Source: Deltaproteobacteria bacterium (GTDB lineage Bacteria > BMS3Abin14). From it: a DNA stretch of 64,000 bases. Shown here piece by piece: positions 445 to 60,452 of this stretch. Each line of letters starts with the position of its first letter. Position 1 is the first letter of the stretch. The position numbers and the translations under genes were made by a program. The stretch lies in the NCBI GenBank assembly GCA_013151915.1, contig JAADHJ010000006.1:65404-129403 (forward strand), in the 5' to 3' direction. Below the pieces are notes generated by a model. It was not told the DNA's origin. It did not search any database and saw only the letters and a program-made list of their open reading frames with translations.

Positions 445-1428
445 TTGAACACCCTTAAGCGCCTGTCCCGTGATATAAGGGTTCGCCATAGCCTCTCCTG
501 GAGTCTTCTCGTCCTCATCCTCCTCGGTATTATCCTCGTAATCGGAAGAGCCACAAAGAAGATCGATTACATCTGGCAATGGCAGCGAATGCCACGATAC
601 ATCCTTTTCAAGGAACAGATAGATATTACGGCGGAGGATCCGGGCACGATTTCCTCCATCAGGAATGATGGAAAGGACAAAGTGGTCATCCTGCGCACTT
701 TCGACGGAAAGGACGAAACATACCGAATCCCCGCCGGGATAGTACAGGTTTACGAGGGCGATGATCTGGATTCAGGGGATATCATCGGGTCATACAAAAA
801 ATGGGCGGTCGGGATTCTTCTCATCGGCCTATGGCTCACCCTTAAGATGTCCTTCATTTCGGTTATTCTGGCGGTGTTCATCGGGCTCATCACAGGTCTT
901 GCACGGATATCCTCCAGCCCCGCGCCCAAGTGGCTGGCCATAGGATACATCGAGTTGATCCGTGGAACCCCTCTTCTGGTCCAGCTTTACATCTTTTACT
1001 TCTTTATCGGGCAGCTATTCTCACTGTCCAACGAGGTCGCCGGGATCCTGGCCCTCTCCTTCTTCGCCGGTGCATATGTGGCGGAAATCGTGCGTGCCGG
1101 GATCCAGTCGATTCACAGGGGACAGATGGAGGCCGCCCGATCCCTCGGTATGACCTACCCACAGGCCATGCAGTTTATAATTCTTCCCCAGGCTTTCAAG
1201 CGCATAATGCCGCCCCTCGCCGGCCAGTTCATATCGCTTATCAAGGACTCGTCCCTGGTATCAATCATCGCCATTACGGATCTCACCAAGGCGGGCCGCG
1301 AGATCGCAACCTCAACGTTCAGCCCCTTCGAGGCATTCTTTACCGTCGCGGCCCTTTATCTTGTCCTTACCTTCTCCCTTTCCATGTTCGTCCAGTACCT
1401 CGAGAGGAGGTATGCAACTCATGATTGA
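445..1428 (+). CDS. amino-acid ABC transporter permease (His/Gln/Arg/opine family) with N-terminal extension
   Basis: Multi-TM protein with the conserved EAA loop ([22 protein letters not shown]). It sits between a binding-protein gene and an ATPase gene. Confidence 0.85.
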
Positions 1429-2152
1429 AGTACGAAACGTCTCCAAGACCTTCTACACCACACACCAGGTCAACGCCCTTACCGATGTCTCCATGCAGGT
1501 CGACAGAGGCGAGGTAGTGGTCATCATGGGTCCCTCCGGCTCGGGAAAGAGTACGCTCCTGCGCTGCCTTAACCATCTGGAGACCATTGACGAAGGGGAG
1601 ATTATAATCGACGGAATCACCCTCACCGATTTCATGACCGACATAAACAAGGTCCGTGCGGAAGTGGGCATGGTTTTCCAGAGCTTCAACCTTTTTCCCC
1701 ACATGACGGTAATGAACAACATAACCATCGCCCAGGTAAAGGTCCGGGGCCGATCAACCAGGGAGGCTGAGGAGACCGCCATGAAGCTGCTGGACAAAGT
1801 GGGGATCCCCGAGAAAGCCCCTGTTTACCCCGGCCAACTTTCGGGCGGACAGCAGCAGCGGGTGGCCATCGCGCGGGCGCTTGCCATGCAGCCGAAGATC
1901 ATGCTCTTCGATGAGCCCACCTCGGCCCTGGATCCTGAGATGATAGGTGAGGTTCTGGACGTCATGAAAACTCTGGCACGCGAGGGGAGGACCATGATTT
2001 GCGTTACCCACGAAATGGGTTTCGCGAAGGAGGTGGCCGACAGGACCATCTTCATGGACGAGGGAAAAATCGTGGAGGTGGGAACTCCTCAGGACATATT
2101 CAACAATCCGCAGAACGAACGTACGAAGCTGTTCCTTTCCCAGATACTGTAA
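1412..2152 (+). CDS. amino-acid ABC transporter ATP-binding protein
   Basis: Walker [13 protein letters not shown] signature [15 protein letters not shown] and Walker [12 protein letters not shown]. An ATG at 1412 is preceded by GAGGAGG and overlaps the permease stop (the ORF track started at 1361). Confidence 0.9.
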
Positions 2153-2157
2153 GGAAA

Positions 2158-2189
2158 CCAGTCCAGAGTCCAGTGTCCAGAGTCCAGAG
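2158..2189. repeat. heptamer tandem array GTCCAGN x4
   Basis: Direct reading gives cc AGTCCAG AGTCCAG TGTCCAG AGTCCAG agg, immediately after the ABC ATPase stop. Confidence 0.8.
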
Positions 2190-2252
2190 GGGAAAGATAG
2201 ACACGGGGACATAAACGCTATGATTTCACGCTCCTCAACGCTAATATAACCG

Positions 2253-2324
2253 TGTGACATTGGGTGGTCTCCTTAGTTTGGTTTCCGCTAAAACTCAAAC
2301 TATCAAGACTTAACCCAATGTCAC
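2253..2324. other. 12-bp perfect inverted repeat (GTGACATTGGGT ... ACCCAATGTCAC) forming a potential long hairpin
   Basis: Both arms read directly from the sequence. The ~48-nt intervening segment contains AAGGAGACC on the minus strand. Confidence 0.7.
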
Positions 2325-2353
2325 CTCTTTTTATGCGTTTCGCTTGAATCCGC

Positions 2354-2420
2354 GACTCTGGACTCCAGCACTCTGGACTCTGCACTCTGGACTATTTTGA
2401 AGACTCTGGACTATTTTGAA
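2354..2420. repeat. inverted-orientation CTGGAC(T) array, including two 19-bp units AGACTCTGGACTATTTTGA
   Basis: This is the reverse complement of the GTCCAGAG array at 2158-2189. It sits just upstream of the flavin reductase start. Confidence 0.8.
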
Positions 2421-2431
2421 ATGAGGCAAAG

Positions 2432-2998
2432 ATGAAAAAACGAACCGTCAAACCTTCAACATTCCTGTGTCCCGTACCCGTTGTCCTGGTGACCTGTCAG
2501 GACAAAGGGGGACGACCGAACATCATCACCATCGCCTGGACGGGCATCATCTGTTCCGACCCGCCCATGGTCAGCATCAGCATCAGGCCAAGCCGGTACT
2601 CCCACGGTATCATCAAGGAGACGGGCCAATTTGTGGTCAATATCCCCCCTGTGGACATTATCAGGAAAGTCGACCTTTGCGGCATCATCTCCGGAAAGGA
2701 CGCGGACAAATTTAAAGAAGCCGGCCTGACCGCGGTCCCGGCCGACAAAGTGTCCCCTCCCCTCATCGAGGAGTGTTCCATCTCCCTGGAGTGCAGCCTC
2801 ACCGAAATAGTCCCACTGGGAATTCACGACATGTTTCTGGGCGAGATCATGGCCACCCACGTAGCCGAGGATGCTTTCGATGACGGTGGAAATATCCGTA
2901 TGGGAAGAATCAATCCCCTGGCCTTTTCACCGCTGGACCATTCCTACAGGGCGCTGGGCGACGCGTTGGGGAGCTACGGGTACAGCCGGAAGGATTGA
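2432..2998 (+). CDS. flavin reductase-like (FMN-binding split-barrel) domain protein
   Basis: The N-terminal CPVPVVLVT...GRPN...IAWTG...PPMVSISIRP pattern is typical of the flavin reductase-like domain. Length is 188 aa. Confidence 0.75.
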   Translation: MKKRTVKPSTFLCPVPVVLVTCQDKGGRPNIITIAWTGIICSDPPMVSISIRPSRYSHGIIKETGQFVVNIPPVDIIRKVDLCGIISGKDADKFKEAGLTAVPADKVSPPLIEECSISLECSLTEIVPLGIHDMFLGEIMATHVAEDAFDDGGNIRMGRINPLAFSPLDHSYRALGDALGSYGYSRKD

Positions 2999-5019: not shown

Positions 5020-5448
5020 TGGTTCATCCTGGAAATGAGTACCTGAAGGATGACCAGATTTTGTGAAAAGCTAACTTAACACAGGGTGCACAGAGTTTCA
5101 CAGGGTAACACAGGGTTTATTCAAAACAAGTTAACGAGGTTTCGCGAAGTTTAAAACCAGGACCTTGTGGTTTTCAGACCTCCTCTGCCTGCCAAGCCGA
5201 CTTGTCAGCCATAGCTTTAGCGACGGCTGAAGCTTTACGCAAAGGCTGGTTAAACCCTCCTTTAAAACCCTGCCTGTCCTGAGCTTGCCGAAGGGCGGTA
5301 CAGCCTGCAAATCACGCCATCGGCGTGACCGTGGTAAATCAGCTCTTGACCTTTTCAGCTCCGCCCGGGATTGCCGCGCCTACGGTTTCACTCGGGCTCG
5401 CAATGACAGCAAAATAATAATAAAGGTACGCATTAACCGGATGAACCC
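5020..5448. mobile_element. MITE-like non-autonomous element, family A, copy 1 (~429 bp)
   Basis: Terminal inverted repeats GGTTCATCCTGGAAATGAGTACC (5021-5043) and GGTACGCATTAACCGGATGAACC (5425-5447). There is no ORF inside. Flanking CATTTTTT / CATGTTTT is a possible 8-bp target duplication. Homologous copies lie at 42759, 60680 and 62472. Confidence 0.7.
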
Positions 5449-13478: not shown

Positions 13479-13595
13479 GTAGGGTCGTAAAAAGTCCATA
13501 CGTGGCTTTTTACTCAACGGGAAGCGAAAAGTGTCATTTTCTCTTCCCTCACAAATCTTCGATTTGGGCCCCCCTAAAGGGGGCGCCTTGATTCA
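13479..13595. repeat. REP/MITE-like palindromic element, family B, copy 1, filling the ruvA-ruvB spacer
   Basis: Sequence GGTCGTAAAAAGTCCATACGTGGCTTTTTACTCAACGG...CACAAATCTTCGATTTGGGCCCCCCTAAAGGGGGCGCC. It is homologous to 20064-20240, 39188-39233 and 59981-60060. Confidence 0.75.
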
Positions 13596-20063: not shown

Positions 20064-20240
20064 GATAGGTCGCAAAAAGTCCATCCATGGCTTTTTACTC
20101 AACGGAAAGCGAAAAATGTCATTTTCACTTTCCTCACAAATCTTCGATTTGAGCGCCCCAAAAGGGGCGCGTTGATGACTTCTTACGAAATCATCATCCT
20201 TGATAGGTCGTAAAAAGCCATGGATGGACTTTTTACGAAG
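20064..20240. repeat. REP/MITE-like palindromic element, family B, copy 2 (full length, both palindromic ends)
   Basis: Begins GATAGGTCGCAAAAAGTCCATCCATGGCTTTTTAC and ends GATAGGTCGTAAAAAGCCATGGATGGACTTTTTACGAAG. It has an internal GCGCCCCAAAAGGGGCGC hairpin. It overlaps the annotated ispH 5' end and the cmk stop. Confidence 0.75.
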
Positions 20241-24127: not shown

Positions 24128-25291
24128 CTAACCCTCATTTCTTTCCATAATTTCCGTTAATTTTTCCAGAAAATATTTGTTTTCATCGGGGTTGCCGATG
24201 GTCACTCGAAGGTGGCCGGGAAGACCGTATCCCGCCATGGGACGGACGATAACGCCATTTTTCAGCAGTGCCTGATAGACTGTCTCCCCCTTTGGGTCCA
24301 TAAGATCGACAAGCAGAAAGTTACCGGCCGAAGGCGCCGCCGAAAGTCCAAGGGAACGGACACCGTCCGAAACCCGCTCCATCTCAATCCTGTTCAACCT
24401 GACGGCCTCCCTGATAAATTCCTGGTCCCCAAGGGCAGCCGCAGCTGCCGCCTGTCCCAAGCTGTTGACATTGAAGGGTTGGCGAACCCTGTTAAGAAGG
24501 TCTGCAAGCTCCTCGGGCATCACCGCATATCCAACCCTGAGCCCGGCCAGACCATAGGCCTTGGAGAAGGTCCTCGTCACAACCAATGACCGGCCCTGTT
24601 TGACAAGTTCGATCCCGTCGGGATAGTCCGGCCGATCCATGGCATATTCGAAATAGGCCTCGTCAAGGACCGGCACCACATCCTCCGGCAATGCGTCGAG
24701 AAACCTCTCCACATCGGGTCGGGCTACATAGGAACCGGTGGGGTTGTTGGGGTTGGCGACAAAGACAATTCGGGTATCCGGGGTAACCGCCTCGGCCATG
24801 GCCCCAAGATCGTGCGCCATGGCGGTGTCAAGAGGCACCTCAACACCCCTGCCCCCGTGGGCAAGGGTACAAAGTCGGTAGACGATAAACGCAGGCCAGG
24901 CGTACACCGTTTCAGCACCTTCACAAAGGAGGAGCTGGGCAAGCAGTTCGAGAATTTCGTTGGACCCGTTTCCCAGAACAATCATCTCACCGGGCACACC
25001 ATGTTTTTCAGCCAACAGCCCCTTCAGATGGTAGGCGCTTCCGTCTGGATAACGATTGATGCCGTTCAATGCCTCCTGAACCGCCTTTCTCGCCAAGGGA
25101 GACATCCCCATGGGGTTCTCGTTGGAGGCCAGCTTGATTATCCTCTCCAGGCCCATCTCCCTTAAAAGCTCTTCAATGGGTTTTCCCGTTTGGTAGGGAA
25201 CCAGATTTTCCACCGATCCGTATGCCGTGCGGTATTTGAGCTGTTTCATATTTTTAAGTCCCATGTTTAAATAACAAGGTTCAACGTTCAA
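24128..25291 (-). CDS. hisC: histidinol-phosphate/aromatic aminotransferase (class II PLP)
   Basis: HisC-family signature FSKAYGLAGLRVGYAV. The first ~9 codons of the ORF are encoded by the GTTCAAN tandem array, so the true start may be a downstream Met (~25249). Confidence 0.85.
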   Translation of the reverse strand: MNVEPCYLNMGLKNMKQLKYRTAYGSVENLVPYQTGKPIEELLREMGLERIIKLASNENPMGMSPLARKAVQEALNGINRYPDGSAYHLKGLLAEKHGVPGEMIVLGNGSNEILELLAQLLLCEGAETVYAWPAFIVYRLCTLAHGGRGVEVPLDTAMAHDLGAMAEAVTPDTRIVFVANPNNPTGSYVARPDVERFLDALPEDVVPVLDEAYFEYAMDRPDYPDGIELVKQGRSLVVTRTFSKAYGLAGLRVGYAVMPEELADLLNRVRQPFNVNSLGQAAAAAALGDQEFIREAVRLNRIEMERVSDGVRSLGLSAAPSAGNFLLVDLMDPKGETVYQALLKNGVIVRPMAGYGLPGHLRVTIGNPDENKYFLEKLTEIMERNEG

Positions 25292-25335
25292 TGTTCAAGG
25301 TTCAACGTTCAATGTTCAACGTTCAAGGTTGAACG
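25278..25335. repeat. heptamer tandem array GTTCAAN x8
   Basis: Reads gGTTCAAC GTTCAAT GTTCAAG GTTCAAC GTTCAAT GTTCAAC GTTCAAG GTTGAAC, in the pheA-hisC junction. Confidence 0.85.
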
Positions 25336-32210: not shown

Positions 32211-32306
32211 ATCCAGTGGAGTCCAGGGTCCAGAGTTCAGTGTCCAGAGTCCAGTGTCCAGGGTCCAGTGTCCAGGGTCCAGAGTTCAGAGTCCAGAGTT
32301 CAGAGG
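32211..32306. repeat. heptamer tandem array GTCCAGN/GTTCAGN x~13
   Basis: Thirteen consecutive 7-bp units. The array starts 8 nt upstream of the guaA start codon and therefore lies in the guaB-guaA spacer / guaA leader. Confidence 0.85.
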
Positions 32307-33852: not shown

Positions 33853-33926
33853 TCATGATCATTGCCGAAATCGGTATTATTGGGAGCTTTCGCTCCTCGG
33901 GTCCCGTGTTCCGGCCGTTTTATCAC

Positions 33927-34012
33927 GTTGGACGTTGGACCTTGGACCTGTTTACTCTACAGCCTATAGCCTATAGCCGATCGCCTGCCTTTACCTGCAG
34001 CCTACAGCCTGC
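33927..34012. repeat. short tandem arrays: GTTGGAC x3 (rc GTCCAAC) followed by CTAYAGCC units
   Basis: Reads ACGTTGGACGTTGGACCTTGGACC, then CTACAGCCTATAGCCTATAGCC ... CTGCAGCCTACAGCC, about 100 bp upstream of guaB. Confidence 0.75.
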
Positions 34013-39187: not shown

Positions 39188-39233
39188 TGATAGGGTCGCA
39201 AAAAGTCCATTGATGACTTTTTGCGAAGTCATC
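39188..39233. repeat. REP-like element family B, minimal copy (palindrome only)
   Basis: GATAGGGTCGCAAAAAGTCCATTGATGACTTTTTGCGAAGTCATC, flanked by direct CATCAAACATG repeats. Confidence 0.6.
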
Positions 39234-39246
39234 AAACATGCTGGGT

Positions 39247-59980: not shown

Positions 59981-60060
59981 ATTCAGCGTTGATGACTTCG
60001 CAAAAAGTCCATCCATGGCTTTTTACTCCACGGAATAACGAAAAATGTCATTTTCACTTA
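59981..60060. repeat. REP/MITE-like element family B, copy 4 (truncated)
   Basis: GATGACTTCGCAAAAAGTCCATCCATGGCTTTTTACTCCACGGAATAACGAAAAATGTCATTTTCAC. It provides the last codons and the stop of the gene at 60054-60452. Confidence 0.7.
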
Positions 60061-60452
60061 CCGGACTCAGGGGAACTTTCCGCGTGCCACTGAGCCGCCG
60101 TGAATTTCCTGAGATCTTCAAAGTACCGTGAATTGGGATCAGCGCCCGCAGTGTGCCCTTTCATGACATCGAACCCGTGCCGGGAGAGCACCCAACCAAC
60201 CGCATGGATGGCCTCGTGGCGGGAAAGGCCGTCAGCCACCAGGCGCCGGAGCGTCCCAGCCACGGGAATCTCGTCGCCCATTGCCGTCTGGGTTTCCACC
60301 ATCGCATGGATCTGGGCATGAAGAAGAACATTCGGCAGGTTCGCCTCGCCGGCCTCGCAGTACTGAAGCACCGCGTTCACCCGCTCGGGCTCATCAGCTT
60401 TAAGCCACATCTCTGATTCAGGTTCGATCTCAGGATCGTAGTCGTGGATCAT
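60054..60452 (-). CDS. hypothetical protein (132 aa)
   Basis: An ATG at 60452 follows GGAGGAAAGGGGAG. No recognisable motif. Confidence 0.45.
   Translation of the reverse strand: MIHDYDPEIEPESEMWLKADEPERVNAVLQYCEAGEANLPNVLLHAQIHAMVETQTAMGDEIPVAGTLRRLVADGLSRHEAIHAVGWVLSRHGFDVMKGHTAGADPNSRYFEDLRKFTAAQWHAESSPESGK

Follow-up and report, generated by a model that had tools for sequence, protein, structure and literature searches.

A probable one-ended IS30-family insertion sequence relic between inverted heptamer arrays in a deltaproteobacterial genome

Introduction

What lies between two arrays of tandem heptamers that face each other across a single intergenic spacer, and do the arrays belong to it? 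This question is raised by the spacer at 2153-2431 of the window, a 64,000-nucleotide stretch of the genome of a Deltaproteobacteria bacterium (contig JAADHJ010000006.1), which separates an ATP-binding cassette (ABC)-transporter ATPase gene (stop codon at 2152) from a flavin reductase gene (ATG at 2432), both on the plus strand. The original prediction, made from the letters alone, described inverted arrays bracketing a middle of ~165 bp with a perfect 12-bp inverted repeat, and repeat analysis and TRF found all of these features where it had placed them. It took the architecture to be either a small mobile or invertible cassette ending in the heptamer arrays or a structured regulatory RNA. 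We consider it highly probable that the spacer carries the relic of an IS30-family insertion sequence (IS), which entered an inverted pair of heptamer arrays already present in the host. The relic is ordinary in kind; the apparent specialization of the IS on such arrays and the complementarity that the array arms keep as the heptamer turns over are the parts worth following.

Results and discussion

The middle of the spacer matches one end of an IS30-family element

Of eight metagenome contigs matched by a 20-mer from the hairpin in the middle of the spacer, two were chance matches. On each of the remaining six, the hairpin together with the AAGGAGA...ATG that it contains makes up the 5' end of a 335-aa open reading frame (ORF) starting MSHSHISVEDREIIAFM... 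(MSHSHISVEDREIIAFMFAHDHSQAEIA...), and the transposase of one full copy, at locus L129, matched the NCBIfam IS30 model NF033563 with 268.7 bits (cut-off, 80; E = 6.6e-80). The Pfam model HTH_38 matched residues 2-45 of the full copies at 37.9-44.2 bits (cut-off, 27), and Pfam rve scored 24-27 bits, below its cut-off of 32.6, in a region covered by the full-length NCBIfam match. A sequence search for a relative of the transposase with a solved structure found none. In the five copies with both ends inside the contig, the element is 1,110-1,113 bp long with a single ORF, and L133 and L137 also show both ends. The ends are imperfect terminal inverted repeats of ~26 bp, CGCG.ATTCAA..CCGAAA.GCATAA, which match each other at ~20/26 positions by hand count.

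Compared by blastn with the full copy at L129:340-1450, the window sequence is 93.9% identical over 148 nt. It holds one terminal inverted repeat, a 96-nt 5' untranslated region (UTR) and the first 17 transposase codons, while the other ~963 bp of the IS are gone; in line with this, tblastn matches transposase residues 1-17 to 2260-2210 with 82% identity and finds no match beyond. Judged by this homology, the middle at 2209-2354 is a one-ended relic of a new IS30-family member, and with one end and an incomplete transposase the window copy is not an intact or active one. Compared with intact copies, its terminal inverted repeat has lost 2 bp; it ends ...GAATCCGCG at 2354, directly abutting the right array. 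Since the right array starts with the same ACTCTGGAC in the relative L001, where there is no IS, the boundary of the element is fixed between 2354 and 2355. On the other side, positions 2190-2208 have no IS match and align loosely to the start (~20 nt) of the 145-bp L001 spacer; in the relative L002, 16 of 18 aligned positions are identical and the deletion junction is the same.

The 164- to 165-bp middle has no second copy in the window by self-BLAST, no other IS copy was found in the window, and a 22-mer from the hairpin gave zero matches in 185,579 species genomes. The expectation of a cassette resembling a miniature inverted-repeat transposable element, repeated at many array-bounded sites, therefore fails: the middle is unique in the window, absent from the species genomes and found elsewhere only as the end of the IS.

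The minus-strand ribosome-binding site and ATG singled out by the original prediction are a genuine translation start, that of the IS transposase (AAGGAGA at 2274-2268, ATG at 2260-2258). The peptide MSHGYISV... that was expected to start there is not a product in its own right. Its first 17 residues are those of the truncated transposase, after which the 168-aa minus-strand ORF runs on in sequence antisense to the ABC ATPase; its counterpart in L002 has 58 aa. The strong Shine-Dalgarno sequence and ATG, the 168-codon open frame and the stable structure could also point to a structured regulatory RNA that stands alone, or to a gene for a small protein (MSHGYISV...) under control of the hairpin. 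We regard this alternative as extremely improbable, given that only the 17 transposase residues are conserved, that the frame lies antisense to the ABC ATPase gene and shrinks in L002, and that no credible Rfam match exists: none reached the gathering threshold in the 64 kb, and in the spacer, searched at E values up to 10, the best hits had E >= 1 and scores far below the cut-offs. The regulatory-RNA half of the original prediction falls with these results and with the lack of covariation described below. Searches for tRNA and tmRNA genes returned none. In annotations, the minus-strand ORF of 168 aa and its 58-aa counterpart called as a gene in L002 would be better recorded as a transposase fragment than as a gene, and the spacer as an IS relic.

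One full copy, L132, comes from the same metagenome-assembled genome (MAG; GCA_041556335.1) as L143, an orthologous ABC ATPase/flavin reductase locus with 75% protein identity. Since both come from one MAG, the IS family lives in relatives of the organism of the window.

Full copies often lie against heptamer arrays

We compared the flanks of the element at 13 independent insertion sites: that of the window and L002, counted once, and L124, L126-L130 and L132-L137. A period-7 score of at least 11/14 occurred in nine of the 13, and a score of at least 12/14 in 7/20 scorable flanks compared to 0.31% of random 35-nt windows. Unlike the IS itself, which is ~90-95% conserved between copies, the heptamers abutting its ends vary by copy (GTCCAGN, TTCCAGA, TTCTAGA, TTCTACN, CTTCAAA and CTTTGGA). 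The junction of the window, GTCCAGAGT followed by CGCG, was found again at an unrelated locus in L136. Since full copies adjoin heptamer arrays far above chance, the arrays are the preferred target of the IS and not the ends of the element. The original prediction of a mobile cassette with heptamer ends was thus right that mobile DNA is involved, namely an IS30-family relic, and wrong about the ends, as copies elsewhere abut other heptamers.

In L129, L130 and L126, the IS sits at the center of an inverted array pair, and because of this position the flanks extend the inverted repeats of the element. A repeat search in L129 recovered inverted-repeat arms of 36 nt with 83% complementarity, made up of 26 nt of the IS and 10 nt of the flank. 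The preference for arrays fits the family, since IS30 prefers near-palindromic hot spots (PMC9333248). Like IS30, the type member from Escherichia coli, the element has a single ORF with an N-terminal helix-turn-helix and a DDE core, a length of ~1.1 kb and imperfect ~26-bp terminal inverted repeats. It differs in its target, which is a tandem heptamer array and often the center of an inverted array pair, and in that the typical 2-bp target duplication is not consistently seen; the window copy differs further in being a one-ended relic.

Insertion sequences that specialize on host intergenic repeats occur in other transposase families, and IS1397, for one, belongs to the IS3 family. ISPpu9, ISPpu10, ISPa11 and IS1397 are specialized on repetitive extragenic palindromic (REP) sequences and bacterial interspersed mosaic elements (BIMEs) (PMC1525189). 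ISPpu9 is an IS110-family member (PMC12288879) with a 5' UTR that hides the ribosome-binding site (PMC8450116). The element described here would share with these the specialization on a family of host intergenic repeats and, as in ISPpu9, would have a long 5' UTR in its transposase mRNA, for which a fold across the ribosome-binding site is predicted. Unlike them, it has a transposase of another family, and its target consists of tandem 7-bp units rather than palindromes of 20-40 nt. A literature search, in a library that is incomplete, found no report of IS30-family elements targeting heptamer repeats, and no IS30 transposase was found beside GTCCAGN arrays in the 120 loci listed from other phyla. 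For the study of mobile DNA, this would be an IS30-family element specialized on tandem heptamers, extending the theme of REP targeting to a new class of repeats and another transposase family.

Relatives at the same spacer and a probable history of the relic

Two relatives bear on how the relic arose. In L001, where the flanking coding sequences are 95-98% identical to those of the window, both arrays are present around an unrelated 145-bp middle without the IS. In L002, where they are 87.5% identical, the relic is present with a matching deletion junction, and the left array has three units. Comparison of the ABC-transporter/flavin-reductase junction in related genomes, as the original prediction had proposed, thus revealed presence and absence of the relic, with the arrays kept in L001, where it is absent, and no inversion. 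An invertible segment finds no backing: the relic points the same way in L002 as in the window, and the genes around it include no recombinase. As L001 carries the arrays without the IS, the arrays, judged from this comparison, pre-date or outlast the element.

We infer the following order of events. The starting state would have been a host spacer like that of L001, with mirror-image (GTCCAGN)n ... (NCTGGAC)n arrays. The ~1.1-kb IS, its transposase gene lying on the minus strand, would then have landed at the inner border of the right array. Afterwards, ~1.1 kb running from nt 963 of the IS into the spacer would have been deleted; with it went the distal IS end and the larger part of both the transposase gene and the old spacer, of which 19 nt are left at 2190-2208.

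We also considered the L001 middle as the other end of the IS or as kin of the window middle. It is neither, and has only a dispersed 30-nt hairpin in common with other spacers. This hairpin, TCCACCATAGCTCGAAGAGCGACGGTGGA, lies in the L001 spacer at L001:5761-5790 and recurs in another spacer of L002 (L002:4683-4712), where the stem carries compensatory changes (CCACC/GGTGG versus CCGCC/GGCGG); a weak recurrence is seen in the window at ~5208-5233. The spacers also differ in small ways around the arrays. The window is without 12 nt (TGTCGAAGTATG) between the ABC ATPase stop codon and the left array (2153-2160) that are present in L001:5638-5657 and L002:1592-1611, and its right array has an additional 19-nt copy of ACTCTGGACTATTTTGAAG compared to L001 and L002.

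Inverted heptamer pairs recur with complementary arms and a shared polarity

The same spacer holds other heptamers in other lineages. L138 (1958-2094) has (ATTCCAN)4, 68 bp and (NTGGAAT)4; L139 (974-1141) and L140 (1-57) have (GTACCNA)4, ~70 bp and seven GTACTGG-type units; and the L141 group (L141:1423-1500) has AAGTGCT and AGCACT, weakly. In L003, with 78% protein identity, the spacer has no arrays and only an ordinary inverted repeat. The two arms complement each other in each array-bearing lineage, and pairing of the arms across the spacer is predicted for every lineage with GTCCAGN, ATTCCAN or GTACCNA. Orthologues of the ABC ATPase (243 aa, PF00005) stand at the equivalent position in L001, L002, L003, L138, L139 and L141.

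Beyond this spacer, a scan of one genome per species yielded at least 120 loci with four tandem GTCCAGN units (L004-L123), and those listed include Acidobacteriota, Planctomycetota, Alcanivorax, cyanobacteria, Desulfobaccales and others. An opposite-strand array lies within 600 bp at 14 of the 120 GTCCAGN loci listed, and 12 of these 14 inverted pairs have the order 5'-(GTCCAGN)n...(NCTGGAC)n-3' (binomial estimate, ~0.01). Because this order reads identically on both strands, the bias in polarity is real, and the arm with CCA also comes first in ATTCCAN (L138) and GTACCNA (L139). The spacers inside inverted GTCCAGN pairs range from 8 to ~530 bp. Three long ones are PF05635 genes of ~125-130 aa, encoding the 23S rRNA intervening-sequence protein, a four-helix bundle; a PF05635 gene lies within 8 kb at 6/120 array loci. 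A hidden Markov model built from the array-flanked PF05635 genes found no remnant of such a gene in the window, L001, L002 or L003.

From these patterns, an inverted heptamer pair appears to be a unit whose inside and outside are defined. The arms appear to co-evolve, with the heptamer switching while complementarity is kept, the arrays serve as landing pads for an IS30-family element, and some pairs enclose PF05635 genes. On this basis we put forward, tentatively and as more doubtful than probable, that inverted heptamer pairs form a distinct, protein-recognized intergenic class with fixed inside-outside polarity, comparable to BIMEs or to the REP doublets known as REPINs. Their likeness to REP/BIME-type elements is one of analogy. 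By analogy with rRNA intervening sequences, the long stem of an array pair could also undergo RNase III-type processing or act as a stabilizing structure. From five or six lineages we cannot separate three candidates for arm complementarity, namely selection for a stem in RNA or DNA, recognition by a protein and conversion from genomic copies. If the arms do stay complementary while the heptamer turns over, then arm pairing, or recognition of both arms by one protein, would be under selection.

The shared polarity of 12/14 inverted GTCCAGN pairs in unrelated phyla, the three pairs that enclose a PF05635 gene and the different middles found between the same arrays in L001 and the window are also what one would expect if inverted arrays were repeated protein-binding sites at the ends of a small mobile or exchangeable cassette, with the middle as cargo swapped between strains. 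However, IS insertion and deletion fully explain the change of middle, and the window middle is found elsewhere only as part of the full IS. Repeated, independent insertion at a single site would be hard to square with lineage-specific heptamers at an orthologous spacer, and neither target duplications nor any associated enzyme turned up. We therefore judge a cassette quite improbable here; the idea keeps some life for inverted heptamer pairs in general but not for the locus at 2158-2420.

The predicted hairpin over the transposase start and the points that weigh against the proposed IS relic

The perfect inverted repeat consists of GTGACATTGGGT (2254-2265) and ACCCAATGTCAC (2313-2324), two 12-bp arms with 100% complementarity lying 47 nt apart, and it encloses an imperfect inner stem (2267-2280 and 2296-2309). 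The original prediction that a stem covers the start signals agrees with the predicted fold, which places the ATG within the 12-bp stem and the Shine-Dalgarno sequence within the inner one. The hairpin alone folds at -36.4 kcal/mol (z = -8.5), and the structure prediction that had been proposed for both strands gave z = -6 to -7 for the whole spacer on either one. The hairpin sequence is nearly invariant across ten IS copies, and the T-rich tract beside it is retained in all of them. Given the energy of the hairpin, its position and the precedent in other elements, it is predicted to bury the Shine-Dalgarno sequence and AUG of the transposase mRNA and would thereby keep translation low. Sequestration of the ribosome-binding site in the transposase mRNA, as in IS10 and IS50, is a standard strategy of insertion sequences, and in IS10 the transposase is also under antisense control by the RNA-OUT/RNA-IN pair. 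Like RNA-OUT, the hairpin and T-rich tract would make an outward-pointing stem-loop antisense to the transposase start, over the Shine-Dalgarno sequence and AUG. Unlike IS10, the element has no detected outward promoter, and the geometry recalls an outward antisense RNA by resemblance only.

Several observations weigh against the preferred explanation, an IS relic within a host array pair, or against the proposed role of its hairpin. The relic (L002:1653-1795) is 98.6% identical between the window and L002 versus 87.5% in the flanks (P about 1e-7), and the flanks of the window are nearer to L001, which has no relic. Target duplications are inconsistent between copies: L128 and L132 have a 3-bp repeat (GGT and ACT, respectively), whereas L124, L129 and L130 lack one and have palindromic flanks instead. 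All IS copies are known from short metagenome contigs. The hairpin shows no covariation, with 0/34 predicted pairs compensatory in ten copies that are all close relatives, and a scan found no sigma-70-like promoter in the full IS. Since the relic is more alike than its flanks and the closest relative, L001, is free of it, simple vertical descent of the relic is at odds with the data, which call for recombination between strains, for gene conversion from full IS copies or for selection.

Alternatively, the host may have taken over the relic. Under this explanation, the hairpin and U-tract on the plus strand terminate or stabilize the ABC transcript, and the stem formed by the arrays is an element of RNA processing or stability. 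The hairpin and T-rich tract on the plus strand resemble an intrinsic terminator facing the ABC operon, as a -36 kcal/mol hairpin is followed there by CUCUUUUUA; the excess identity of the relic and the predicted pairing of the arms across array-bearing lineages point in the same direction. On the other hand, the hairpin and T-rich tract are present in all mobile copies and so were not shaped at the window locus, and the high identity would follow equally from recent recombination or from gene conversion from full IS copies. A consensus promoter and terminator scan made no call in the spacer, the loop of the hairpin with T-tract being larger than 8 nt and thus above the limit of the scan. A takeover by the host is compatible with an IS relic in an array pair, as a later step, and we rate it as unlikely.

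Heptamer arrays and other repeats in the window

The arrays are host intergenic repeats and are not peculiar to the 2158-2420 spacer. TRF called six period-7 arrays in the window, spread over five spacers between real genes (Table 1). The left array of the spacer reads GTCCAGA GTCCAGT GTCCAGA GTCCAGA G (period 7, 4.3 copies), and the right array contains CTCTGGAC, the reverse complement of the left unit, four times within 2356-2411. Read on the minus strand, the octamer GTCCAGAG occurs in the right array at 2356-2363, 2371-2378, 2385-2392 and 2404-2411, so that its units are unevenly spaced (15, 14 and 19), with degenerate units between them, and a perfect 18-nt direct duplication is present (2384-2401 and 2403-2420). 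Across the window this octamer is found 14 times compared to 2.3 expected, and 0/100 shuffles reached 14. The GTCCAGN array between guaB and guaA is a single one without an inverted partner nearby.

Tandem heptanucleotide repeats between genes are familiar from cyanobacteria as short tandemly repeated repetitive (STRR) sequences, with STRR1-3 in heterocystous cyanobacteria, and how intergenic heptamer repeats originate and what function they have has been an open question ever since the description of STRR sequences. The ABC ATPase/flavin reductase spacer offers a test case for both. Like STRR sequences and the TAACTGA heptamer repeats of Beggiatoaceae and cyanobacteria (PMC4679880), the arrays described here are short tandem runs of 7-bp units, almost always intergenic, present at many loci per genome and scattered in their phylogeny. 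Their units (GTCCAGN, GTTCAAN, GTTGGAC and CCTATAG) differ from those of STRR1-3, which makes them repeats of the same kind and not of the same family. They also differ from the TAACTGA repeats in forming inverted pairs with complementary arms, one inverted case having been reported among 170 TAACTGA sets (PMC4679880).

Table 1. Positions of the relic, its parts, the neighboring genes and the heptamer arrays in the window, and of array-enclosed PF05635 genes at other loci
Feature	Position	Strand	Basis or remark
IS30-family insertion sequence relic (putative)	2209..2354	-	corresponds to nt 964-1111 of the 1,111-bp element
First 17 transposase codons (MSHGYISVEEREIIAFM), start of HTH_38	2210..2260	-	tblastn
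5' UTR hairpin of the IS (predicted)	2254..2324	-	outer 12-bp stem contains AUG; inner stem contains Shine-Dalgarno sequence
T-rich tract CTCTTTTTA, directly 3' of the hairpin	2325..2333	+	sequence
Transposase-proximal terminal inverted repeat, CGCGGATTCAAG--CGAAACGCATAA on the minus strand	2331..2354	-	alignment of 8-10 copies
Probable 19-nt leftover of the pre-insertion spacer	2190..2208	.	deletion junction 2208/2209
Left heptamer array, (GTCCAGN)x4 + G	2161..2189	+	host intergenic tandem repeat
Right heptamer array, opposite orientation, ACTCTGGAC x4 + degenerate units	2355..2420	+	ends 11 nt before the flavin reductase ATG
GTCCAGN arrays as called by TRF	2159-2190; 2368-2393		
ABC-transporter ATPase, last gene of an amino-acid ABC operon	1421..2152	+	ORF list; stop codon 8 nt before the left array
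Flavin reductase family protein (PF01613)	2432..2998	+	ORF list, family match
GTTCAAN x8.7 array, ending in the palindrome GTTCAAGGTTGAAC	25275-25335 (as period-7 array, 25275-25330)		intergenic
GTCCAGN x12 array	32219-32305 (as period-7 array, 32238-32305)		between guaB (stop 32362) and guaA (start 32203), minus-strand operon
GTTGGAC x3 array	33924-33950		intergenic, upstream of guaB
CCTATAG x4 array	33956-33985		intergenic, upstream of guaB
PF05635 genes inside inverted GTCCAGN arrays	L041:1371-2011; L099:2816-3430; L059:208-801		Vicinamibacterales and other MAGs; 59.5-70.5 bits (cut-off, 33.8)

The neighbors at the locus are ABC transporter, flavin reductase, MscS and trehalose phosphatase genes. 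Repeats of other kinds also occur in the window. One is a dispersed intergenic repeat of ~65-137 nt with the palindromic motif CGTAAAAAGTCCAT...ATGGACTTTTTGCGA, whose copies are 73-87% identical; it is found in the window at 20069-20185, 13481-13557, 59998-60062 and 39190-39235 and in L001 at L001:1440-1611, and a motif similar to it borders the IS in L136. Another kind, direct repeats of ~10 nt (CACAGGG/CACAGAG type), lies at 5077-5118 of the window, downstream of the trehalose phosphatase gene, and at L141:2820-2985 the CACAGGG/CACAGAG motif occurs as inverted arrays around a ~130-bp spacer.

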